Source: Flavobacteriia bacterium
GTDB taxonomy: Bacteria; Bacteroidota; Bacteroidia; Flavobacteriales; Schleiferiaceae
Direction: 5' to 3'
Assembly: GCA_013373425.1 (NCBI GenBank)
Contig: JABXHW010000007.1
Location: 3,429-67,428, forward strand
DNA: 64,000 nt
Each line of letters opens with the position of its first letter. Within the stretch, counting starts at the first letter, position 1. A model generated the notes under the pieces. The model did no database searches and had not been told where the DNA came from. It saw only the letters and a program-made list of their open reading frames with translations. A program made the position numbers and the translations under genes. Shown here piece by piece: positions 3,396-36,302 of this stretch.

Positions 3396-5123
3396 TCAAT
3401 AAGCAAACACCATCTTCTTGGTATCAATTACCTCTTCGTTGATAATGAGTGTGTAGAAGAATACACCCTCCACGCCAAAGCCATGTTGGTATAGAATCTC
3501 ATTGATCCCACTCTCAACTGCTTTTGGTATTTCACTCAGTACTTTCCCATTGACATCGGTGATTCGAATGATGGCTCCCTTGCCAGTATATCTTTCCGGT
3601 GCATTGAATCCAATGATGGTGGCATCGTCGAATGGATTAGGTCGATTTTGTAAAAGTGTCGGCATACTCGGGCCATCACTTTCCTCCTCTATACCCACGG
3701 ACAAAAGAGAAATCTCCTCATTCGGTAAGCTCTCAAGTTGATTGCCGTCCACTGCGGCTAGAGAAACAAACATGGCACCACCAACCCCTGGGTCAATAGT
3801 GGCTTGCGTTCCTTGGAATATTATAAGCGTGTCGTAATCCGGACTGTTGGTTCTTACGACAAGACGGTAAGTGCCGTAATTATTTGGGTCTGTAACTTGC
3901 ACTTGAATACCATTCGGTACAGGGGCAGCGGTGAAGCTCGGTTGCTCCGGTCCAAGGGCTAAGACCGCGGCTGCAGTGCCATTGATCACGGCATTGCGAG
4001 ACAAGTAGTTGAAATCAACATAGAAACTGTCAATCTGGTTATCTCCATCGGTATCGACCCCTAGAATGTCTGCGGTTGTGTGCTGTCTGTCGTGATAGTT
4101 CGGGTCGGTTACCCCGGCATCGCCATGCTCATTCGCTGAGGTGAAACGCATTGCTGGGTATCCGCGGAATCGAAATGGAATATGGTCTCCACCTCGTCCT
4201 GTTCTGTCCTCTGCACTCATGATGGACAGGTTCATTGGAACTGCTGCGTTTGGCAACACTTCATCCTCGTACTCCATCTTGATGAAACGAGCTAACATCT
4301 TACTCACACTGTTGAATCCTCCATGTGAGTAGAGACGGGTTTGGGTAGAGTCGATATGATCTGGGAACGGACAACCAGGAGGCGATGCTGTATTTCCACA
4401 AATGATACCTCCAATCACGTCATTGTTTAATACGGCCTCAATTTGAAGATTGTTTTGCTGTGCAAAGATGGCAAAGGACAGGGCGCCGTAAAGTCCTTGT
4501 TCCTCACCGGTTGTTGGCATGAACACTATCGTTTGAGGAAAGCTGTACTGACTCATTACTCTGGCGAGTTCCATAACTAAAGCTGTGCCTGATGCATTGT
4601 CTTCCATGCCTGGAGCATCACACAGTACATCACAAGCCGTTTCACACCTAGAGTCGAAGTGACCTTCAATAATGATGAACGATTTATTGGATGTGTCTGT
4701 GCCCGGAAGAATTGCCATCACGTTTTTGTGACGTGTCATGTTGCACACGTTGATGTCGAATTGGAAGAATCCGGTTTGAAGACGGTTTTCATTCCTCGCG
4801 CTGTAATCTTGAAATTTGGATTCAATCCAGTTTCTCGCAGCGCCGATTCCCGTTGTAGCCGAAAGCGTATCTGATCCGGTGTTTCGATTTTCAAACGACT
4901 CAAGTTTGAGCAGAATCTGAAACAAACTGTCAGCCTGGACACCATTCTGAATTCCTGTTAGAATGGCCGAAGGTGCCGTTATGGGGGAGTTCTGTGTATA
5001 ATCGGCTGGATTGTAGTTGCCCATCAGGAGATTCATCCCATTCGGAACTTGAACTTTGAAGTTGGTTTGACCAAAGCTGAACGCGCTGATCAAAGTGAGC
5101 AGTAGGAGTAGACGTGTTCTCAT
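3396..5123 (-). CDS. M28 family metallopeptidase with T9SS type A sorting domain
   Basis: GHFDSR, GMEDNASG, GEEQGLYG, NNDVIG and GDHIPF motifs; C-terminal LQNRPNPF...G.YFY CTD; signal peptide from MRTRLL (5123). Confidence 0.9.
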   Translation of the reverse strand: MRTRLLLLLTLISAFSFGQTNFKVQVPNGMNLLMGNYNPADYTQNSPITAPSAILTGIQNGVQADSLFQILLKLESFENRNTGSDTLSATTGIGAARNWIESKFQDYSARNENRLQTGFFQFDINVCNMTRHKNVMAILPGTDTSNKSFIIIEGHFDSRCETACDVLCDAPGMEDNASGTALVMELARVMSQYSFPQTIVFMPTTGEEQGLYGALSFAIFAQQNNLQIEAVLNNDVIGGIICGNTASPPGCPFPDHIDSTQTRLYSHGGFNSVSKMLARFIKMEYEDEVLPNAAVPMNLSIMSAEDRTGRGGDHIPFRFRGYPAMRFTSANEHGDAGVTDPNYHDRQHTTADILGVDTDGDNQIDSFYVDFNYLSRNAVINGTAAAVLALGPEQPSFTAAPVPNGIQVQVTDPNNYGTYRLVVRTNSPDYDTLIIFQGTQATIDPGVGGAMFVSLAAVDGNQLESLPNEEISLLSVGIEEESDGPSMPTLLQNRPNPFDDATIIGFNAPERYTGKGAIIRITDVNGKVLSEIPKAVESGINEILYQHGFGVEGVFFYTLIINEEVIDTKKMVFAY

Positions 5124-20759: not shown

Positions 20760-20845
20760 AGGTGTTGAGGTTGGAAGGTTGTAGGTGCTCGGGTTGGTGG
20801 TGCTTACGTGCTAAGGTTGGTATGTGCTCAGGTGCTAAGGTTTTG
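20760..20845 (+). repeat. Degenerate 8-mer tandem array (AGGTGCTN/AGGTTGGN, about 11 units) upstream of the four-helix-bundle gene
   Basis: AGGTGTTG AGGTTGGA AGGTTGT AGGTGCTC GGGTTGGT GGTGCTT ACGTGCTA AGGTTGGT ATGTGCTC AGGTGCTA AGGTTTTG. Confidence 0.85.
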
Positions 20846-20912
20846 AAGATTGTTGATCGAGATTGGGAGGTGTAGAATTTGGTTCGCTTAACTTGATTGA
20901 AAAGTGAAAACC

Positions 20913-21290
20913 ATGGCGACCGTAAAGAATTATACGGAGTTGAATTGCTGGAAAGAGTCAAGACTACTAGTTCAATTGGTCTATTCTTATTCGAACAGGT
21001 TAGCTGAATTCAAACAGTTTAATTTGATTAATCAATTTGAAAGGGCCGCGGTTTCCGTAATGAACAATATTGCCGAAGGATTTGATCGATTGAGTCTAAA
21101 GGAAAAGATCAGGTTTCTCAATATTTCGGTATCAAGCGCTAATGAAGTCGATAGTATGACTTACATATTGCAAGACTTACAACTTCTCTCAGAATCTGAA
21201 GTAATGACCATACGAGAACAAGTGCGAATTACAAAGGCGAGAACATTGGCCTTCATCGTATACTTAAGGTCAAAGCTGAACACACGATAG
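20913..21290 (+). CDS. Four helix bundle protein (23S rRNA IVP / TIGR02436 family)
   Basis: Y.EL.CWKES...NQFERAAVSVMNNIAEGF.R....RFL.IS..SA.EV signature; oriented opposite to both neighbours. Confidence 0.92.
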   Translation: MATVKNYTELNCWKESRLLVQLVYSYSNRLAEFKQFNLINQFERAAVSVMNNIAEGFDRLSLKEKIRFLNISVSSANEVDSMTYILQDLQLLSESEVMTIREQVRITKARTLAFIVYLRSKLNTR

Positions 21291-21346
21291 TTAGCTCAAC
21301 AAGAACTCACACGGCCCGGTCAACTTGCTCATTTACTTGAGAGCGT

Positions 21347-21386
21347 TCCAACCTGAGCACCTGAGCACCCGAGCACCTCCCAACCT
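21347..21386 (-). repeat. 8-mer tandem array (5 units), inverted relative to 20760-20845
   Basis: Reverse complement reads AGGTTGGG AGGTGCTC GGGTGCTC AGGTGCTC AGGTTGGA; abuts the lepA stop codon. Confidence 0.88.
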
Positions 21387-27411: not shown

Positions 27412-27556
27412 ATACGTGAACACGGATGCACGTGAGCACGTAGGCACTTCAGCCCACATACCTCTTGGTGATAACAGCCCGTGCAAGTGAACATATCGTT
27501 TGCAGCCCAAGTATCCAGTATCCAGTATCCAGTATTGAGTATCAGTATCCAGTATT
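27412..27556 (+). repeat. Composite repeat element, copy 1: 8-mer array + 37-bp core + 7-mer array
   Basis: GCACGTRR-type units 27412-27447; core 27472-27508; CAGTATY-type units (about 7) 27509-27556. Confidence 0.85.
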
Positions 27557-28345
27557 ACTAGCTATCTTCTTGGTCCCAACTTTATATATCGAGTCCCAAA
27601 GCTGAAGTCGAGCTTCTAACGCTTCAACGCATGCTTCCTCAGCCTCAAGCCATTTGCTTTCGTCGTTACCGCAGAGCTCGGTGATCATCTTCAGAGCCAT
27701 AGGACCGTGCTCGTCGCCATCGAGTTCAATGTGACGATCGAGGTAATAGACGAAGGCATCTAATTGTCCAGGGAATTTGGCGTGGAGCTCTTTCACGATT
27801 TCAGTGAACATGTCCGGAATCAAGTCTTCTCTCCCAAAGGTAAAAGCCGCCGCCATCTCGTGGGTTTTGCCACGTTTGATGATGGTGTGATTGGCACGAA
27901 GGAATTCGAGAACTCCCTCTTCAATTTCAGCCAAATTGTACTTGAGAATATCCTTCAACTTGAAGCGACGATTTACCGTCTTCAAAAAGTGAATGATAGG
28001 TCGTGTATTCGCCCCAGCCTGACGCATGGCATCCATGTACAGCTCATAATGACTTGCTGGGTTTCCCGCCGCATCTTCATCGCTTTCCTCGGCTAAGACA
28101 ATTTCGTTGATCAACCGGCGAGCCAACTTGCTCTCGGTTGGAACCCAGGCTTCGTCAACTGAAGTGAGTCGAATTTGAAGTGCCTTCAACAAACTCATAA
28201 AATCCCAAACTGCGAAAATGTGGTACTCCATGAAGCGCTTGAGGTCTTCAATGTCATTTAGGGCCTCGTATAGAGGGTGCTCTAGGATTTGTTTTCTGAG
28301 AGGTTCAATTCTTCGCTCAATGGCGATGATGTGTGAATCTTTCAT
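27542..28345 (-). CDS. DUF3050 family protein (heme oxygenase-like fold)
   Basis: FMEYHIFAVWDFMSLLK.LQ, EIVLAEESD, SHYELY, FTFGREDLIP and YLDRHIELDGDEHGP motifs. Confidence 0.88.
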   Translation of the reverse strand: MKDSHIIAIERRIEPLRKQILEHPLYEALNDIEDLKRFMEYHIFAVWDFMSLLKALQIRLTSVDEAWVPTESKLARRLINEIVLAEESDEDAAGNPASHYELYMDAMRQAGANTRPIIHFLKTVNRRFKLKDILKYNLAEIEEGVLEFLRANHTIIKRGKTHEMAAAFTFGREDLIPDMFTEIVKELHAKFPGQLDAFVYYLDRHIELDGDEHGPMALKMITELCGNDESKWLEAEEACVEALEARLQLWDSIYKVGTKKIASNTGY

Positions 28346-28393
28346 GGGGATTAAAGGACTTGGGGGAATCTAAAGGCTCAGGTAGGGGCGAGT

Positions 28394-28445
28394 CTCGTTA
28401 CTCGAAACCAGTTACCCGTCACTCGCAACTCGTTACTCGCTACTC
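28394..28445 (+). repeat. 7-mer tandem array CTCGNNA (7 units)
   Basis: CTCGTTA CTCGAAA CCAGTTA CCCGTCA CTCGCAA CTCGTTA CTCGCTA; contains the DUF2480 stop codon. Confidence 0.85.
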
Positions 28446-28952
28446 TTTTGGCTTCTTATAAATAGGAACGGTGGAACACGCCTCTCCATACATTAAACTC
28501 TGAACCACTGGCGTGAGCCGTTCCGTGAGTTTTATATACGCTTGAATAGGCACAGGTAGATTTGAACAACCCTTAACAATCACCTTTTTGCCATGGTATT
28601 CGTAGATGTCAATCTGGTCGATTACACTTTCAAAAACCATTGCCTCCAGCGCTTCACGGTCGCCAAATACGGTGCGTACAGCGCGGCCATTGAGTGCGCG
28701 GGCGACTAGTATCCACGCCCATTGTGGGATGATGGCATCTTCAGAGCAAAAGACGTGAACGTAGGCGTCGTTGTATTGCGACCAATCGTGATTTTTAATG
28801 TGCTCGCGAAAGTCTTTTTCGCGAAGCATCACACCTTCGAAAAGCCAAGGTGAAATGTCGAGTGACATTCTCTTGGTCCTGGGATAAAGCTGCTCGAGGT
28901 CGATGGTGACCAAGCCGCTTTTCTCGACTTTATTGATGATTTCGTCTGCCAT
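28440..28952 (-). CDS. DUF2480 family protein
   Basis: EIINKVEKSGLVTIDLE, CSEDAIIPQWA and S.MYGEACSTVP motifs. Confidence 0.9.
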   Translation of the reverse strand: MADEIINKVEKSGLVTIDLEQLYPRTKRMSLDISPWLFEGVMLREKDFREHIKNHDWSQYNDAYVHVFCSEDAIIPQWAWILVARALNGRAVRTVFGDREALEAMVFESVIDQIDIYEYHGKKVIVKGCSNLPVPIQAYIKLTERLTPVVQSLMYGEACSTVPIYKKPKE

Positions 28953-28967
28953 AATTCAGAGCAAGTC

Positions 28968-29306
28968 TTAGAACATACCGAGCTCGAGACGTGCCTCTTC
29001 ACTCATCATGTCTTTTGTCCAAGGTGGGTCGAATGTAATTTCGACTTCGGCTGTAGTCACGATGTCGATGGTTTTCACCTTTTCCTCTACTTCTACGGGA
29101 AGCGATTCAGCCACCGGGCAGTTCGGCGAAGTGAGTGTCATCAAAACATGCACATCTCCTTGGTCGCTTACATTAACATCGTAAACGAGACCGAGTTCGT
29201 AAATATCTACTGGAATCTCAGGGTCGTAAATCGTGCGTAGCACATCCACGACATCTTCTCCGAGCTTCTGCATCTGTTCTTCATTCAATGCCATAGCTGT
29301 ACTCAT
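28968..29306 (-). CDS. sufT: SUF system Fe-S assembly protein (DUF59/SufT)
   Basis: L.TIYDPEIPVDIYELGLVY...MTLTSPNCP...FDPPW. Confidence 0.92.
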   Translation of the reverse strand: MSTAMALNEEQMQKLGEDVVDVLRTIYDPEIPVDIYELGLVYDVNVSDQGDVHVLMTLTSPNCPVAESLPVEVEEKVKTIDIVTTAEVEITFDPPWTKDMMSEEARLELGMF

Positions 29307-29731
29307 GCTTGTTTAGATTGAAAAGCGAGGGCGTAAAACTTCATTTGTTTGATCATGGAAACGAGACCATTGGCGCGGGTAGGCGACAAGTGCTCTTTCA
29401 ATCCAATCTGATCTACAAACGATAAGTCGGCATCCACTATAGCCTGAGGGGTTTGATCACTCAAAGCGCGAATCATCAATGCGATGATGCCCTTCGTGAT
29501 GATTGCATCGCTGTCGGCCGTAAACTGAACTTTTTCACCATCGTAATCTGCGTGCAGCCAAACGCGACTTTGGCAACCCTTGATTAGGTTATCCTCTACC
29601 TTGTACTGCTCATCGATGAGTGGAAGCTCTTTGCCCAAAGAAATGATGTGATCGTACTTATCCATCCAATCCTCGAACATGTCGAATTCGTCGACAATGT
29701 CATCTGTTCTCTCTGCTATACTCTCGCTCAT
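29303..29731 (-). CDS. sufE: Cysteine desulfuration protein SufE
   Basis: IKGCQSRVW, DSDAIITKG and LSPTRANGL motifs. Confidence 0.95.
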   Translation of the reverse strand: MSESIAERTDDIVDEFDMFEDWMDKYDHIISLGKELPLIDEQYKVEDNLIKGCQSRVWLHADYDGEKVQFTADSDAIITKGIIALMIRALSDQTPQAIVDADLSFVDQIGLKEHLSPTRANGLVSMIKQMKFYALAFQSKQA

Positions 29732-29735
29732 ATCC

Positions 29736-30971
29736 TTATTTCAACATTGGGATTACACGGTTCAATCCCGCTACCAAAGTGTCGATTTCTTCTTTTGTGT
29801 TGTATAAACCCATGGATGCACGAATGGTTCCTGGAACTTCCATTCGGTTCATCAAGGGTTGCGTACAGTGGTGTCCTGTTCTAACGGCGATTCCTAATTG
29901 ATCGAGTAGGGTGCCAATGTCGTAGTGATGCAAGCCATCAATATTGAAACTGAACAATGCTGATTTGTTCGGAGCGGTGCCGTGAATTTTCAAACCTTCC
30001 ACGGACAAGAGGGCTTCAGTTCCGTACTCGAGGAGCTCTTGTTCATAGGCAGAGATGTTCTCCATGCCGAGCTCGTTCAGCCAGTCGATAGATGCGGCCC
30101 AGGCGATTACGCCTTCGATGTGTGGTGTTCCCGCTTCGAACTTATGAGGAAGTCCTGCGTAGGTGGTTTTCTCAAAAGTGACGGTGTCAATCATTTCTCC
30201 ACCACCTTGATAAGGAGGGAGCTTGTTGAGCCACTCTTCTTTGCCGTACAATGCGCCAATGCCGGTCGGACCGTACATTTTGTGTGCACTGATGGCGTAA
30301 AAATCAACATCCAAATCACGGACATCCACATTTAAGTGAGGCATGCTTTGCGCGCCGTCGATTACAACTGCGGCATCGACTTCATGCGCTAGAGCCGTCA
30401 TTTCTTTCACCGGGTTGATGGTGCCAAGTGCGTTGGAGATATGGTTGAAAGCGACCAAGACCGTCTTTTCATTCAGCAGAGCTTTGAAAGCTTCCATATC
30501 GAGTACGCCGTGATCATCCATCGGAATCACCTTCAACGTGGCGCCCTTTCGTTCACATAGCATTTGCCATGGAACGATGTTGCTGTGATGCTCAAGAGTT
30601 GAGATGATGATTTCATCCCCAGGCTTCACCAATTCGCCAAAACTCCAAGCAACCGTATTGATGCTATCCGTAGTTCCCTTCGTGAAAATGACTTCATAAC
30701 TATGCTCAGCATTGATGTGAGCACGAAGCTTTTCACGTGTGAGCTCAAAAGCATCTGTAGCACGCTGACTTAGGTGGTGTACACCTCTGTGAACGTTGCT
30801 GTTGATGGTCTCGTAGTACGAAGTGATAGCGTTGGTCATGGCTTTCGGCTTGTGCGTCGTCGCGCCGTTATCCATGTAAACCAATTTGCGTCCGTTTACC
30901 TCGCGTTCCAAGACTGGAAACTGCGAGCGAATCGCTTCTATATCAAATGGTGAAGTTGAAGTATTGCTCAT
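29736..30971 (-). CDS. sufS: SufS family cysteine desulfurase
   Basis: YMDNGATT, NVHRGVH, EHHSNIVPW, SAHKMYGPTGIG and VRTGHHCTQP motifs. Confidence 0.97.
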   Translation of the reverse strand: MSNTSTSPFDIEAIRSQFPVLEREVNGRKLVYMDNGATTHKPKAMTNAITSYYETINSNVHRGVHHLSQRATDAFELTREKLRAHINAEHSYEVIFTKGTTDSINTVAWSFGELVKPGDEIIISTLEHHSNIVPWQMLCERKGATLKVIPMDDHGVLDMEAFKALLNEKTVLVAFNHISNALGTINPVKEMTALAHEVDAAVVIDGAQSMPHLNVDVRDLDVDFYAISAHKMYGPTGIGALYGKEEWLNKLPPYQGGGEMIDTVTFEKTTYAGLPHKFEAGTPHIEGVIAWAASIDWLNELGMENISAYEQELLEYGTEALLSVEGLKIHGTAPNKSALFSFNIDGLHHYDIGTLLDQLGIAVRTGHHCTQPLMNRMEVPGTIRASMGLYNTKEEIDTLVAGLNRVIPMLK

Positions 30972-31002
30972 TGCGGTGCAAAGTTCGTAAATGATTCTTA
31001 CA

Positions 31003-31021
31003 AATTAGAATGAGTCTAGAC
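31003..31021. promoter_or_regulatory. Putative iron-regulator operator upstream of sufS
   Basis: AATTAGAATGAGTCTAGAC, imperfect 9-1-9 palindrome, 14/19 identical to the site at 32349-32367. Confidence 0.45.
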
Positions 31022-31036
31022 AAGGTTTGGGAAATA

Positions 31037-31196
31037 GTACTAAGTACTGGGTACTTAGTACTGAGTACTGAGTACTGGGTACTGGGTACTGGATACTGGG
31101 GCTGCAAATGATAATTTCACGACAGTGGACTGTTAGCATTAGAAGAACGGCCCAGTCACCGTGCCCACGTGCAGTCGTGCCTACTTGCCTGCCTAC
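31037..31196 (-). repeat. Composite repeat element, copy 2 (inverted relative to copy 1)
   Basis: GTACTGR-type x9 at 31037-31099; core 31099-31135 (27/37 gapless identity to copy 1); nnnCGTGC-type 8-mers 31157-31196. Confidence 0.88.
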
Positions 31197-31690
31197 TCAA
31201 TCTTTCTAGGATGTCCTAGTATTTCCGTGAACATGTGATGCAGTTCGAAAGTTTGCTCGGCACCTATTTTTTGACCGAATTGGGCGATGATGTAGAGGAT
31301 GAGGGCTATAATTCCGCAAGCGCCCATCGCGAAGAATGCCCAGTACTGCTCTTGAACCATCGCCTGCGACATGCCGATGATCGCCAAGAAGGTGCCCAGT
31401 ACGCCCATTGCGGCGTAGCCGTAGAAGAAGATTGACCAGACATTGGGATGTGGTCCGTATAAGCCGCGCACAATCGTGCCGTCTTCGGTTTCTTCTGCTG
31501 AAAGTTGAAGTTGTGGCGACCAGTAATGGCGCAAGGGTTCGTTGAACTCCACGATGAGTAGATGTCGCCTTTCAATGAGGTGTACCTTATCGGAGTGCTG
31601 CTTGAATCCATCTACTAACTTTTGATGAATCTCTTTAGCGGAGCCTTCCACTTCATGCTTGAATCGGGGTCTTACTCGTACGCTGGTCAT
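31193..31690 (-). CDS. Hypothetical membrane protein (2 TM)
   Basis: RVRPRF...HYWSPQLQLS...VRGLYGPHPNVW followed by two TM helices; start placed at MTSVRV because the longer ORF runs through a repeat array. Confidence 0.8.
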   Translation of the reverse strand: MTSVRVRPRFKHEVEGSAKEIHQKLVDGFKQHSDKVHLIERRHLLIVEFNEPLRHYWSPQLQLSAEETEDGTIVRGLYGPHPNVWSIFFYGYAAMGVLGTFLAIIGMSQAMVQEQYWAFFAMGACGIIALILYIIAQFGQKIGAEQTFELHHMFTEILGHPRKIE

Positions 31691-31704
31691 GGTGGTAAGA
31701 TAAT

Positions 31705-31742
31705 GAGTTTCGAGTTTCGAGTGGCGGGTTTTGGGTGGCCGG
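31705..31742 (-). repeat. 7-mer tandem array, inverted relative of 28394-28445
   Basis: Reverse complement reads CCGGCCA CCCAAAA CCCGCCA CTCGAAA CTCGAAA CTC. Confidence 0.7.
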
Positions 31743-31794
31743 CAATAGGGTTTTTGTTCGCGGTCACTTGCTTGCATATCGCTACTTTTGCCCC

Positions 31795-32274
31795 ATGGAA
31801 CACCACAAGCCCTTTATTCAGAAGTGTATCGAGTTATCTCAATCGAGTTTAGATAATGGTGATGCGCCTTTTGGATCTATCGTTGTAAAGGACGGGGAGA
31901 TTATCGCCGAATCGACCAACTATGCCGCTTCTAGAGTGAGCGATCACGCTGAGGTGGTAGCATTGCACATGGCACATGAAAAGTTGGGAACCTCCAATTT
32001 AGAGGGAGCCATTCTCTATTCGAATTGCGAACCTTGTCCGATGTGCTCCTTCATGGCACGCGAATACAAAGTAACCGAAGTAGTTTATGCCCTGCCATCA
32101 CCGTACATGGGTGGACACAGCAAGTGGAACATTATGGAGGATGATGAACTGGAGCAATTCCCTCCTTTTTTTGGCAAGCCACCCAAGGTCACCCGTGGTG
32201 TTCTGGAGGCAGAAGCAAAAGCTGTTTTCGACCAAACGCCACTCTGGATGTTTGGGTCGAATGCCAGAAGATAA
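31795..32274 (+). CDS. Nucleoside/guanine deaminase family protein (Zn-dependent)
   Basis: HAE and CEPCPMC motifs; TACTTTTG promoter element just upstream. Confidence 0.9.
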   Translation: MEHHKPFIQKCIELSQSSLDNGDAPFGSIVVKDGEIIAESTNYAASRVSDHAEVVALHMAHEKLGTSNLEGAILYSNCEPCPMCSFMAREYKVTEVVYALPSPYMGGHSKWNIMEDDELEQFPPFFGKPPKVTRGVLEAEAKAVFDQTPLWMFGSNARR

Positions 32275-32335
32275 ACGGAGTCTATGAGCCGCCTAGGAAG
32301 TGCGTAATGAACTATCTCATGTCCTCGATAGTTTG

Positions 32336-32343
32336 TACTTTTG
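32336..32343 (+). promoter_or_regulatory. -7 promoter element (TACTTTTG) for the sufA-B-C-D operon
   Basis: Exact TAnnTTTG 30 nt upstream of the ATG at 32374. Confidence 0.7.
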
Positions 32344-32348
32344 CACAG

Positions 32349-32367
32349 AATTAGACTGATTCCAAAT
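32349..32367. promoter_or_regulatory. Putative iron-regulator operator at the sufABCD transcription start
   Basis: AATTAGACTGATTCCAAAT, imperfect 9-1-9 palindrome immediately downstream of the -7 element. Confidence 0.5.
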
Positions 32368-32373
32368 AGTAGT

Positions 32374-32703
32374 ATGATCAACGTATCCGAAACAGCATTA
32401 GTAAAGCTGCAGAGCCTGATGGCGGAGGAGGGGAAGACTATCGATACTTCCTACATCCGCGTTGGCGTAACAAGTGGTGGTTGTTCAGGGCTTTCATACA
32501 AGATGGAAATCGTGAACGAACAAGTTGAAGGCGACAAGGTTTTTGAAGATAAAGGAGTCAAGATCCTCGTCGATAAAAAGAGCCTACTTTATCTATTGGG
32601 AACCACATTGGAGTACAGTGGTGGTCTCAATGGCAAAGGCTTCGCGTTCAACAACCCGAATGCATCCCGTACCTGTGGATGTGGCGAGAGCTTCGCCGTT
32701 TAA
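32374..32703 (+). CDS. HesB/IscA/SufA family Fe-S assembly protein
   Basis: GGCSGLSY and NPNASRTCGCGESF motifs. Confidence 0.95.
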   Translation: MINVSETALVKLQSLMAEEGKTIDTSYIRVGVTSGGCSGLSYKMEIVNEQVEGDKVFEDKGVKILVDKKSLLYLLGTTLEYSGGLNGKGFAFNNPNASRTCGCGESFAV

Positions 32704-32723
32704 TTTGAAGGATAGATATTCCC

Positions 32724-34166
32724 ATGAGCAATAGCGATCAGATATTAGATGACGTAACCAAGAAGGAGTACGAATACGGTTTCTACACAGAAGTAGAATC
32801 GGATCGCGCTCCCAAAGGGTTGAACGAAGACATCATCCGACTCATTTCTACTAAAAAGAATGAGCCGGAATGGATGCTCGAATGGAGATTGGACGCTTAT
32901 CGCAAGTGGCTTGAAATGACTGAGCCGACTTGGTTGAAGCCGAAATACGAGAAGCCGAATTTTCAGGATATCACGTATTACGCAGCACCAAAAAAGAAGA
33001 AAGGTCCAGATAGCCTAGATGAGGTAGACCCTGAGCTATTAAAGACATTCGAGAAACTAGGAATTTCTCTGGATGAGCAAAAGCGACTCACAGGAGTGGC
33101 TATGGACGTCGTGGTCGATTCAGTTTCGGTTGCGACTACTTTCAAAAAGACACTTCGTGAGTTGGGAATTATTTTCTGCTCAATGTCTGAAGCCATTCAA
33201 GAGCACCCAGAATTGGTGAAGAAGTACTTGGGCACTGTTGTTCCTAAATCTGACAACTTCTACGCAGCATTGAACTCTGCAGTATTCACAGATGGTTCTT
33301 TCTGCTACATTCCGAAAGGCGTGAAATGTCCAATGGAGCTTTCAACCTACTTCCGAATCAACGAAGCAGGAACAGGTCAGTTTGAAAGAACACTTGTTGT
33401 AGCCGACGCTGGAAGTTACGTGAGCTACCTCGAGGGGTGTACAGCACCGCAACGTGACGAGAACCAGCTACACGCAGCTGTGGTAGAATTGGTTGCCCTC
33501 GACGATGCGGAGATTAAGTACAGTACAGTTCAGAACTGGTACCCTGGCGATGCGAATGGCAAGGGTGGGGTTTACAACTTCGTAACTAAGCGCGGTATTT
33601 GCGAGAAGAATGCAAAGATTAGCTGGACTCAAGTTGAGACTGGTTCAGCGGTTACTTGGAAGTACCCGAGCTGTATCTTGAAAGGAGATAATTCTATCGG
33701 TGAGTTCTACAGTGTTGCTGTAACGAACAATCATCAGCAAGCCGATACGGGAACCAAGATGATTCACTTGGGTAAGAACACCAAGAGTACCATCATTTCT
33801 AAAGGTATTTGTGCCGGATCATCCGACGGCAGCTATCGCGGATTGGTGAAAATTGGTCCGCGTGCGCACAACGCCCGAAACTTCTCGCAATGTGATTCGC
33901 TTTTAATGGGCGACGGCTGTGGAAGTCACACTTTCCCGTATATCGAGACTCAAAATAAGACGGCCAAAATCGAGCACGAAGCAACGACTTCGAAAATTGG
34001 CGAGGATCAAATTTTCTATTGTAACCAGCGCGGTATCGGAACAGAAGAAGCTGTTGCCCTCATCGTGAACGGTTACGCGAAAGAAGTCCTCAACAAGCTC
34101 CCAATGGAGTTTGCAGTAGAAGCTCAAAAACTACTTGCCATCTCACTCGAGGGTTCAGTCGGATAA
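32724..34166 (+). CDS. sufB: Fe-S cluster assembly protein SufB
   Basis: [31 protein letters not shown] and EHEATTSKI motifs. Confidence 0.98.
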
Positions 34167-34211
34167 TTCAATTGTATCAATTAAAGCCACACGGGCTAAA
34201 GAAGCACATCA

Positions 34212-34967
34212 ATGCTGGATATTAAAAATCTACATGCAAGCATCGAGGAGAAAGACATCCTCAAAGGCATCAATTTGCAAGTAAAACCTGGTGAAGTTCA
34301 CGCCATCATGGGACCAAACGGTTCGGGTAAATCTACACTTTCAAGTGTGATTGCGGGTCGTGAAGACTACGAGGTAACCGACGGATCTATCGATTTCTTA
34401 GGTGAGAATGTTCTCGACTTAAGCCCAGAGGAAAGAGCACAGCTCGGCATCTTCCTTTCATTCCAATATCCAATCGAGATTCCTGGCGTAAGCGTTTCAA
34501 ATTTCTTGAAGACTTCTATCAATGAGATTCGCAAAGCGAAGGGGGAAGAGCCTATGGGTGCAGCAGACTTGCTGAAGAAGATGCGTGAGAAGTTGAAAGT
34601 CTTAGAGATGGACAAGGCTTTCCTTAGCCGCTCATTAAATGAAGGTTTTTCAGGCGGAGAGAAGAAGAGAAATGAGATCTTCCAGATGGCGATGCTCGAG
34701 CCGAAATTGGCCATCCTTGATGAAACCGATTCAGGTTTGGATATCGATGCACTTCGCATCGTTGCACAAGGGGTGAACAAGTTCCGCAATAAGGACAATG
34801 CCGTTGTTGTGATCACACACTACCAGCGCTTGTTGGACTACATCGTTCCAGATGTAGTTCACGTGTTGATGGACGGTAAGATTGTGAAGACAGGCGACAA
34901 GAACTTGGCGCTTGAGCTAGAAGACAAAGGATACGATTGGATCAAGAAGGAAGTAGCTTCCCTCTAA
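34212..34967 (+). CDS. sufC: Fe-S cluster assembly ATPase SufC
   Basis: GPNGSGKST, FQYPIEIPGV, NEGFSGGEKKR, LDETDSGLDIDAL and THYQRLL motifs. Confidence 0.98.
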   Translation: MLDIKNLHASIEEKDILKGINLQVKPGEVHAIMGPNGSGKSTLSSVIAGREDYEVTDGSIDFLGENVLDLSPEERAQLGIFLSFQYPIEIPGVSVSNFLKTSINEIRKAKGEEPMGAADLLKKMREKLKVLEMDKAFLSRSLNEGFSGGEKKRNEIFQMAMLEPKLAILDETDSGLDIDALRIVAQGVNKFRNKDNAVVVITHYQRLLDYIVPDVVHVLMDGKIVKTGDKNLALELEDKGYDWIKKEVASL

Positions 34968-34979
34968 AAGACCATTTCT

Positions 34980-36302
34980 GTGGAAGAATTCAAAGATAAA
35001 CTGGAGTCTAACTACATCGTTTTTGAGAACGAACTCAATGGCGAGGCAGATACTGCTGTGCATGGAATGCGCCGCGATGCCTTTCGCAACTTTGAGAAGT
35101 TAGGATTCCCTACGAAGCGCAATGAGGAGTGGAAGTACACCAACTTGAAGCCTATCCTCAAAGCCGATTATAAACTCTTTCCAAAGCGTGAAGATCATAT
35201 CGAGTTTAAAGATGTGAAGCGCTTTTTCTTGAATGAAATCGATAGCTATAAGGTCGTTTTCATCAATGGAGTATACAGCAGCTGGTTGAGCGAAACCACG
35301 CATCAAGGTTATGACGTTTGCACTTTTGGCAATGCGTTGAGAAAGTATCCCGAGGCGATTGATGGTTACTTCAACAAAGTGGCTAAAACCGATGAGCAAG
35401 CGATGGTTTCATTGAACACCGCGTTTGCATCAGAGGGTGCATTTATTCGCGTTCCGAAGAACAAGGTGGTGGATAAGCCTATCCAAATCATCTTCTTCAA
35501 TACTTCGGATGACCGTGAAATCATGGTGCAGCCGCGAAACTTGATCATCTTGGAACAAGGCGCGAAGGCTGAAATCATCGAGCGTCACCAATCGCTAACG
35601 GATACACCGGTTTTGACGAACTCCGTATCTGAAGTGTCGGTTGGAGCGAATGCAGAATTACATTACTACAAGCTGCAAAACGACGTACACACTTCTTCGT
35701 TGATCGACAACACGTGGATCAATCAGTATAGAGACTCGGTGGCGAAGTTCAGCACTTTTAGTTTCGGAGGTCGATTGACGCGCAATAACCTCCACTTCGC
35801 CATGAAGGATGAGAACTGCTTGACCTATATGAATGGGGTGACCATCTTGGATGAGAACCAACATGTAGATCATCATACTGTTGCCGATCACTTGGTACCG
35901 CACTGTGAGAGCCACGAGCTGTACAAGGGTATTTATGATGATACATCAACAGGTGTGTTCAATGGTAAAATCAACGTGCACAAGGATGCGCAGAAGACCA
36001 ATGCCTTCCAGCAGAATGACAACATTTTGTTGAGCGATAGAGCTACAGTAGACACTAAGCCGCAGTTGGAAATTTATGCGGATGACGTTGCGTGTTCTCA
36101 CGGTTGTACCGTTGGTCAGCTCGATGAAGAAGCCCTCTTCTACATGAAGAGTAGAGGTATTGCAGATAAAGAGGCGAGAGCTCTCTTGATGTATGCTTTT
36201 GCTTCTTATGCATTGAGCGAGGTGGGTATTCGCGAGCTCAAGCAGAAAGTGAACATGCTTATCGCAAAGAAACTAGGAGTGGATCTCGACTTTGAGTTGT
36301 AG
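34980..36302 (+). CDS. sufD: Fe-S cluster assembly protein SufD
   Basis: EEWKYTNL, GVFNGKI, TKPQLEIYADDVACSHGCTVGQLD; GTG start. Confidence 0.97.
   Translation: MEEFKDKLESNYIVFENELNGEADTAVHGMRRDAFRNFEKLGFPTKRNEEWKYTNLKPILKADYKLFPKREDHIEFKDVKRFFLNEIDSYKVVFINGVYSSWLSETTHQGYDVCTFGNALRKYPEAIDGYFNKVAKTDEQAMVSLNTAFASEGAFIRVPKNKVVDKPIQIIFFNTSDDREIMVQPRNLIILEQGAKAEIIERHQSLTDTPVLTNSVSEVSVGANAELHYYKLQNDVHTSSLIDNTWINQYRDSVAKFSTFSFGGRLTRNNLHFAMKDENCLTYMNGVTILDENQHVDHHTVADHLVPHCESHELYKGIYDDTSTGVFNGKINVHKDAQKTNAFQQNDNILLSDRATVDTKPQLEIYADDVACSHGCTVGQLDEEALFYMKSRGIADKEARALLMYAFASYALSEVGIRELKQKVNMLIAKKLGVDLDFEL

Follow-up and report, generated by a model that had tools for sequence, protein, structure and literature searches.

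Short tandem arrays that recur across the non-coding DNA of bacteria have been described in several lineages. The heptamers of Xanthomonas (GGGAATC) and Nostoc (GGGGAYT) form arrays scattered in non-coding DNA, lying across stop codons or downstream of them (Rehm et al. 2015, PMC4692102). Assemblages of heptamer repeats, comparable to the cyanobacterial short tandemly repeated repetitive (STRR) sequences and to TAACTGA-type arrays, occupy intergenic spacers of Flavobacteriia including Gramella, Aequorivita and Elizabethkingia and are absent in close relatives (MacGregor 2015, PMC4679880). Here we describe two elements built from such arrays, which flank in mirror image a block of five genes (sufS, sufE, a sufT-like gene and the genes for DUF2480 and DUF3050) in a Flavobacteriia bacterium of the family Schleiferiaceae. 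The stretch of DNA analyzed, hereafter referred to as the window, comprises 64,000 nucleotides (nt), from position 3,429 to 67,428 of contig JABXHW010000007.1 in assembly GCA_013373425.1. With moderate confidence, we regard the two elements as sisters in a family of composite repeats that is specific to this species, occupies intergenic sites and is made of ordered 8-nt and 7-nt arrays, of the kind known as long simple sequence repeats (LSSR) or STRR. Earlier literature on such repeats reportedly includes work by Mrázek in 2007.

The suf elements resemble the STRR/TAACTGA-type repeats and the assemblages of Flavobacteriia in being intergenic and lineage-specific and in mixing several repeat types within one spacer, and, as with those assemblages, they are absent from relatives with the same gene neighbourhood, contigs break in them and a role in rearrangement is suspected. 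The unit sequences differ from those of the STRR/TAACTGA type, sharing with them a CAGT core; the unit of STRR1, for instance, is CCCCAGT. TAACTGA arrays in Beggiatoaceae stand mostly directly upstream of start codons, whereas the arrays described here are found mostly at the 3' ends of genes. Compared with the Xanthomonas and Nostoc heptamers, several types of 7-mer and 8-mer are concatenated here in a fixed order together with non-repetitive cores of 37 or 56 nt, and one of the heptamer units, the A-type, has GG runs only.

Two mirror-image elements and their repeat family

Copy 1 (positions 27412-27556, plus strand) and copy 2 (31037-31196, minus strand) form a mirror-image pair around the sufS-DUF3050 genes (Table 1). 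Both begin with GCACG-type 8-mers and finish with CAGTAYY 7-mers, with unique sequence of about 60 nt in between. As inverted repeats of about 150 bp the two are about 75% identical overall and 73% identical in the unique part. The core pattern TAACAGNCC-N6-GTGAA-NN-TATCNTTTGCAGCCC has exactly two matches in the window, one for each copy, and no match in any of 100 shuffled windows. The best ungapped match between the two cores is 27 of 37 nt and lies at offset 0 from the 7-mer array in both copies. Since this value exceeds the maximum of 22 obtained in 2000 shuffles (mean, 16.8) as well as the maximum of 21 reached against either suf copy by the 105 other segments that precede CAGTAYY arrays in the genome, the pair is real and beyond chance. 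The paired elements around the suf genes exist as the preliminary description of this DNA had portrayed them, two inverted composites of 8-mers, spacer, ungapped core and 7-mers, in agreement between Tandem Repeats Finder (TRF), pattern matching and shuffling. For copy 2, TRF reports no 8-mer array, its units being degenerate, and the AGTACT units of its heptamer array are palindromic. The Rfam scan of the window gave two tRNAs only, with nothing at the suf elements.

Table 1. Positions of the two suf-flanking elements, the bracketed genes and the PF05635 cassettes (window positions unless a contig, C, is named; ORF, open reading frame; aa, amino acids)
Feature	Position	Strand	Description
Copy 1 8-mers	27412-27447	+	about 4 GCACGTRR-type units; TRF period 8/16 at 27414-27447
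Copy 1 spacer	27448-27471	+	24 nt; no similarity to copy 2 spacer by alignment
Copy 1 37-nt core	27472-27508	+	TAACAGCCCGTGCAAGTGAACATATCGTTTGCAGCCC; pattern match
Copy 1 heptamers	27510-27556	+	CAGTATY, 'A-type'; TRF period 7, 6.7 units
Copy 2 heptamers	31037-31100	-	CAGTATC, then CAGTACC/CAGTACT ('B-type'); 8-9 units; TRF 31036-31100
Copy 2 37-nt core	31099-31135	-	TAACAGTCCACTGTCGTGAAATTATCATTTGCAGCCC; pattern match
Copy 2 spacer	31136-31165	-	resembles reverse complement of 3' subterminal region (21280-21350) of window four-helix-bundle cassette
Copy 2 8-mers	31160-31196	-	degenerate GCACG-type units; sequence and alignment
Bracketed block	27542-30971	-	sufS, sufE, sufT-like, DUF2480, DUF3050; ORFs and Pfam
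DUF3050 gene	27542-28345	-	Pfam
Degenerate heptamer array	28394-28445	-	GAGTAAC/GGGTAAC, in DUF2480-DUF3050 spacer; TRF
DUF2480 gene	28440-28952	-	Pfam
sufT-like gene	28968-29306	-	Pfam FeS_assembly_P
sufE	29303-29731	-	Pfam SufE
sufS	29736-30971	-	Pfam Aminotran_5
sufS upstream region	30972-31036	-	..TAGAC..TTCTA..TTTACGA.CTTTGCA..ATG; conserved throughout the genus (five genomes)
orf194	31193-31777		beyond copy 2; 194 aa; no Pfam match
Window PF05635 gene	about 20913-21290; unit 20783-21378	+	arms (AGGTGCTN)n 20783-20842 and (GAGCACCT)n 21351-21378
C10 PF05635 gene	C10:5743-6129		arm unit CGCAGGAR
C21 PF05635 gene	C21:29353-29727		arm unit CAGTATY; right arm continues into 56-nt core
C61 PF05635 gene	C61:98091-98393		arm unit GTRACGR

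A family of 7/8-nt repeats fills about 180 intergenic sites in this genome, the assembly of which comprises 3.09 Mb in 76 contigs with 46% G+C. Among TRF arrays of at least 2.8 units, period 7 (122 arrays) and period 8 (129 arrays) stand out against period 6 (28) and period 9 (21), and the commonest heptamer arrays genome-wide are those of CAGTACC (44) and CAGTATC (at least 22). The CAGTAYY arrays are intergenic in 66 of 70 cases, as judged by crude ORF calls, and are over-represented between convergent genes and at gene 3' ends. Four-unit CAGTAYY arrays number 63 in this genome and none in four genomes of the same genus (referred to as congeners). With respect to the marks of the LSSR/STRR kind, head-to-tail units of 5-11 nt in at least three copies are present at 27414-27447, 27510-27556 and 31036-31100, and both the genome-wide, mostly non-coding excess and the lineage specificity are found. 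The assembly is fragmented because contigs end in (CAGTACC)n arrays, as seen at many contig ends (C1, C2, C11, C29, C36, C37, C39, C44, C45, C55, C56, C57 and C61). The genes lying between closely spaced arrays are ordinary and assorted, without a transposase, and neighbouring elements on contigs occur in all relative orientations.

A commoner composite of the same genome runs from CGCAGGAR 8-mers through GCACGNNN (GCACG) 8-mers and CAGTATT-GAGTATC heptamers into a core of about 56 nt, followed by GTACCCA heptamers, and often starts after the terminator of the upstream gene. Its core (TTGTTCAGAAC..CACCCC..ACCCC..GTGCTAGTTT) was detected in 28 copies with an nhmmer profile built from 19 cores. 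The suf cores, which by eye resemble some members of this family, were rejected as members, the profile missing both even when those two segments only were searched. The suf pair shares with the family the arrays and the GCAGCC junction before the heptamers, and its unique module is private to the pair. Another module, AACCATCATTGTCCAGCCCT, is present beside arrays in three copies, C45:186 (-), C45:20846 (+) and C35:89744 (+), of which the two on C45 are inverted, about 20 kb apart, and may represent a second case of nearby sister copies. This module was discarded as a homologue of the suf core, since the similarity reduces to the ordinary 8-mer/heptamer junction (GTCCAGC / GCAGCC).

The privacy of the 37-nt core was consistent over all searches. 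No copy beyond the two was detected in the genome with six mismatches allowed or by blastn-short, none in 20 relatives including the four congeners with up to three mismatches, and none by BLAST in eight relatives. The exact core pattern had no match in a metagenome collection. A metagenome scan with a 16-mer of the 56-nt core gave chance matches only among those listed, and none of the 80 loci examined carried arrays or core. The element had been proposed to be MITE-like (MITE, miniature inverted-repeat transposable element). With two copies in the genome and none in the 20 relatives or the metagenome scan, the core is not that of a dispersed MITE family, and the BLAST searches across genome and relatives that had been suggested yielded nothing beyond the pair. 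Because the private module stands at an identical offset in both copies, one copy probably served as the template of the other, through local duplication or gene conversion between nearby arrays.

Gene context, strand polarity and synteny

The bracketed block consists of five housekeeping genes over 3.5 kb, with no PF05635 gene among them by Pfam. The gene for a Peptidase S46 (pepS46) lies on the far side of copy 1, and sufB, sufC and sufD are aligned on the plus strand from 32724, beyond copy 2. The heptamer array of copy 1, read on the minus strand, supplies the DUF3050 gene with its four terminal codons (N-T-G-Y) and its TGA stop, and the C-terminal 13 residues of the protein differ in each congener. 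Copy 2 reaches from 3 nt past the orf194 stop to 65 nt short of the sufS ATG. The conserved region left between copy 2 and sufS is probably the native promoter/operator of sufS. The upstream sequence of about 60 nt (..TTAGACCTGTTCTA..TTTACGACCTTTGCA..ATG) is a candidate promoter and operator of the sufS-DUF3050 unit, which would then have a very short leader. The effects of the elements on suf are probably incidental, with copy 1 donating the end codons, the stop codon and the 3' untranslated region of the DUF3050 gene, and copy 2 being located upstream of the native promoter/operator. For annotators, the DUF3050 stop codon is to be expected inside the repeat, and assemblies are to be expected to break there.

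The orientation of the CAGTAYY arrays follows the direction of the adjacent genes. In arrays up to 50 nt from a stop codon, the sense strand carried the G-rich sequence in 21 cases versus 6, and in those up to 50 nt from a start codon it carried the C-rich sequence in 5 cases versus 1. The same polarity rule, including the overlap with stop codons, applies to the G-rich heptamers of Xanthomonas and Nostoc (Rehm et al. 2015, PMC4692102). Copy 1, which overlaps the DUF3050 stop, obeys the rule inside the 50-nt limit. Copy 2 carries the strand favoured by the rule but is located 65 nt upstream of the sufS start, outside this limit. Since the rule sets opposite strands at the 3' end and at the 5' end of an operon, the copies are inverted, and we infer that the inverted arrangement follows the polarity of the repeats and is no transposon or inversion signature. 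Read on the complementary strand, the B-type unit gives (GGGTACT)n, which matches the G3N4 quadruplex motif; the CCC runs of copy 2 number only three, in addition to the CCCC of its core, and copy 1, of the A-type, has GG runs only.

The age of the elements can be estimated from the congeners, the SufS proteins of which are 83-87% identical to that of the present genome, those of the next relatives being about 63% identical. The order and orientation of pepS46, DUF3050, DUF2480, sufT, sufE and sufS are constant in all congener loci as far as each extends (the locus of genome G002 stops within sufT), and the suf elements are absent at both orthologous sites in all four. The pepS46-DUF3050 spacer is short in two congeners and contains in another about 650 nt of other repeats, an array of (GGAGGGTT)n 8-mers and a 13-mer array, and one congener carries (GGGTGAC)n upstream of sufS. 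These comparisons demonstrate that both copies are younger than the split from the four sequenced congeners, and that elsewhere in the genus the two intergenic sites hold different repeat arrays. An exact-protein look-up gave only one further assembly, a Logan contig of 3573 nt, which points to run SRR11434624, equals the block and breaks in both arrays.

Around the block, the gene order is less stable. The gene that immediately precedes sufS is a different one in each species of the genus. In a comparison of window 31193-36302 with loci L101, L103 and L104, sufBCD is inverted relative to sufS in the present genome and in one congener and colinear with it in two others. A deaminase-like gene, which adjoins sufS in two congeners, is found here at 31804-32271 on the plus strand. 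Because the upstream gene differs from species to species and sufBCD is inverted in two genomes, the suf neighbourhood is rearrangement-prone, and the bracketed block itself is fixed. A rearrangement-prone neighbourhood, together with inverted repeats of the length and identity given above, speaks for the two copies being recombination sites that would invert or mobilise the 3.5-kb block. Such a function is extremely improbable, however, because the orientation of the block beside pepS46 is the same in all five genomes, the breakpoints of sufBCD do not match the positions of the pair, no site-specific recombinase was detected among ten neighbouring ORFs scanned with Pfam, an inversion would part sufS from its conserved upstream region, and an identity of 73% in the unique part makes a poor substrate for homologous recombination. 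The inversion or mobilisation of the block, as initially suggested, is not supported, as all four congeners have a single order and orientation and neither of the elements. No sign was detected that the elements mobilise, invert or switch the genes, and the bracket around the suf operon is no evidence of a mobile or invertible suf island.

The comparison with described mobile or dispersed elements leads in the same direction. MITEs, the repetitive extragenic palindromic sequences and bacterial interspersed mosaic elements (REP/BIME) and the pneumococcal BOX elements are likewise short, non-coding and modular, with enrichment between convergent genes or at 3' ends. In contrast, no terminal inverted repeats are present within a copy of the suf element, its two ends being formed by 8-mers and by unrelated 7-mers in direct order, and no duplicated flank indicative of target-site duplication was seen between the filled sites and the empty sites of the congeners. 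With these two features absent and a unique core in two copies only, a MITE nature of the suf elements is not supported; their bulk is formed by microsatellite-like arrays, evolving by slippage.

Promoter-like core and possible pairing of transcript ends

Based on the sequence of the core, a function in transcription was also considered. In this genome, probable strong promoters, among them some that directly precede tRNA genes, have TAnnTTTGC(A/G)(G/C)CCC as their -7 region. An extended -7 box, TA(TA/TC/CA)TTTGC(A/G)(C/G)CCC, is common to probable tRNA promoters and other strong promoters at C28:124525, C48:23664, C50:31337 and C43:55. The sequence TTTGCAGCC(C) is typical of promoter -7 regions, and 12 of the 26 TTTGCAGCC sites are intergenic, compared with about 9% of the genome. 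The consensus of the primary sigma factor of Bacteroidota is said, in work going back to Bayley in 2000 and Chen in 2007, to be TTTG at -33 and TAnnTTTG at -7. The cores read TATC(G/A)TTTGCAGCCC, with three bases instead of two between TA and TTTG, the TTTG lying at 27499-27502 (+) in copy 1 and at 31105-31108 (-) in copy 2, and TTG is absent 19-21 nt upstream in both, so that neither core contains the combination of TAnnTTTG with TTG 19-21 nt upstream. A scan of the sigma-70 type flags CTAACA-17-TATCAT within the core of copy 2, a consensus that the primary sigma factors of Bacteroidota are not known to use.

A promoter in the core is possible from these motifs. If the core acted as an outward-facing promoter, copy 2 would provide a second promoter reading through the heptamers into sufS, and copy 1 an antisense promoter directed into the 3' end of the DUF3050 gene. 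In agreement with this model, the box is of the type that marks probable strong promoters, including those upstream of tRNA genes, its TTTGCAGCC sequence is so often intergenic, and both cores keep TATCnTTTGCAGCCC exactly, together with TAACA 17 nt upstream of TATC. We nevertheless consider it rather unlikely, given the TA-N3-TTTG spacing, the absence of the upstream TTG, the conserved native upstream region of sufS kept downstream of copy 2, and the occurrence of GCAGC(C) as the ordinary junction of GCACG 8-mers and heptamers in many elements, from which the match may come.

The elements could also act at the level of RNA. Conserved RNA structure within a single copy was rejected, the folding z score being about -1.2 and the small hairpins not being common to both copies; the sole exception was copy 2, where the palindromic AGTACT units gave a plus-strand fold with a z of -3.9. 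Between the two copies, the calculated duplex of copy 2 sense with copy 1 antisense reaches -148 kcal/mol, and the gain upon cofolding is -57 versus -7 +/- 3 for shuffled partners, indicating that pairing of the mRNA ends is, by this computation, thermodynamically possible. In the corresponding model, a read-through transcript of orf194, copy 2, the suf genes and antisense copy 1 would form a long imperfect duplex, to be processed for instance by RNase III, by analogy with the stems around rRNAs and around the 23S intervening sequences carrying the four-helix-bundle ORF. Besides the strong energies relative to shuffles, the model would accommodate the absence of a detectable intrinsic terminator between orf194 and sufS or after DUF3050, and the location of the four-helix-bundle genes of this genome likewise between inverted arrays. 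However, any inverted repeat gives such energies, and the variable positions of the core follow no compensatory logic, the same sequence being present on both arms. The congeners operate the same operon without the elements, the model needs a hypothetical co-transcription from orf194, and its loop, at 3.5 kb, greatly exceeds the 0.4-0.6 kb of the four-helix-bundle cassettes. Processing of this kind is highly unlikely.

Four-helix-bundle cassettes and a possible origin of the elements

The genome contains four genes of the four-helix-bundle family PF05635 (23S_rRNA_IVP), and all four are located between inverted arrays, each pair of arms being made of one different unit (Table 1). Three of the four arm units match or closely resemble array types of the composites and of the suf elements, while the fourth, that of the C61 cassette, recurs as a solo array within the bracketed block, in the DUF2480-DUF3050 spacer (28394-28445), where it closely resembles the left arm of that cassette. 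The likeness of the 8-mers noted in the preliminary description was verified, the window arm GAGCACCT being one base off the GCACGT-type 8-mer of the suf elements and ACGTGCTA being present in the left flank of the gene. Its proposal of a gene-less, MITE-like relative of the four-helix-bundle unit survives in part: the elements are gene-less and their array types are those of the arms of all four PF05635 genes, but the MITE-like character is not supported. It is plausible that the suf elements are gene-less relatives of the four-helix-bundle unit. Because their unit types are those of the arms around the four PF05635 cassettes, the gene-less arrays may be solo or decayed arms of such cassettes.

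One spacer may retain a more specific trace of this relationship. In copy 2, the spacer weakly resembles the subterminal sequence on the 3' side of the window cassette, 10 kb away, with a z score of 4.05, a similarity score reached by 7 of 2000 dinucleotide shuffles and by 0.07% of random genomic segments, and both sequences occupy the same position beside a related 8-mer arm. After about 16 comparisons, this sequence likeness is only suggestive, as is a single short stretch of similarity between copy 1 and the C21 cassette from the same set of tests.

With the PF05635 cassettes and the ORF-bearing 23S rRNA intervening sequences, the suf pair shares the arrangement of two inverted arms bracketing a segment. 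In contrast to the cassettes, the segment is the 3.5-kb block of five housekeeping genes, without a PF05635 gene, and the polarity of the arms is opposite, the C-rich CAGTAY strand pointing into the suf block and, in the C21 cassette, away from the gene. The correspondence of arms and genes could be taken further, with the 7/8-nt arrays serving as cis sites for the four PF05635 proteins, each paralogue having its own unit type, the ordered composites (CGCAGGAR, GCACG, CAGTAT, core, CAGTACC) being concatenated arms of several paralogues, and inverted pairs such as that around suf being brought together as DNA or as RNA. This model is distinctly unlikely; if true, the pair would define a processed or insulated unit around the operon, in the way that 23S intervening sequences are excised.

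Arrays of 7- and 8-mers also occur in the spacers of Flavobacterium suf operons. In loci L010, L054, L028, L049, L060 and L034, paired heptamer arrays lie between sufC and sufD and between sufT and DUF2480 and stop about 10 nt short of the start codon, and some of the pairs are complementary, for example (GTTTCAG)n(AACCTGA)n. Two Flavobacterium loci have a four-helix-bundle gene inserted amid such arrays in the sufC-sufD spacer.

Several observations weigh against sister copies of a composite repeat family as the sole explanation of the suf elements. The similarity of copy 2 to the cassette is only suggestive, and copy 1 shows none at that end; the link between arrays and cassettes is correlative; and the polarity count rests on crude ORF gene calls. 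The fragmented assembly, in 76 contigs, could have lost further copies of the core between long arrays. In addition, the cores contain conserved blocks (TAACAG, GTGAA and TATC.TTTGCAGCCC) in a -35/-10-like geometry of 17 nt, and the resemblance of the core end to a -7 box could reflect selection for function and not shared descent alone.

Compared with the published repeats (Rehm et al. 2015; MacGregor 2015), the ordered composite architecture and the correspondence of arms and genes represent a variant and not a new kind. Several bacterial phyla commonly contain tandem arrays of 7-8 nt. What this genome adds is, firstly, that such arrays are assembled into ordered composites with cores of conserved length; secondly, that their unit types match the arms of every four-helix-bundle gene; thirdly, that they obey the strand-polarity rule of Xanthomonas and Nostoc; and finally, that they are located at junctions rearranged between the species of the genus.

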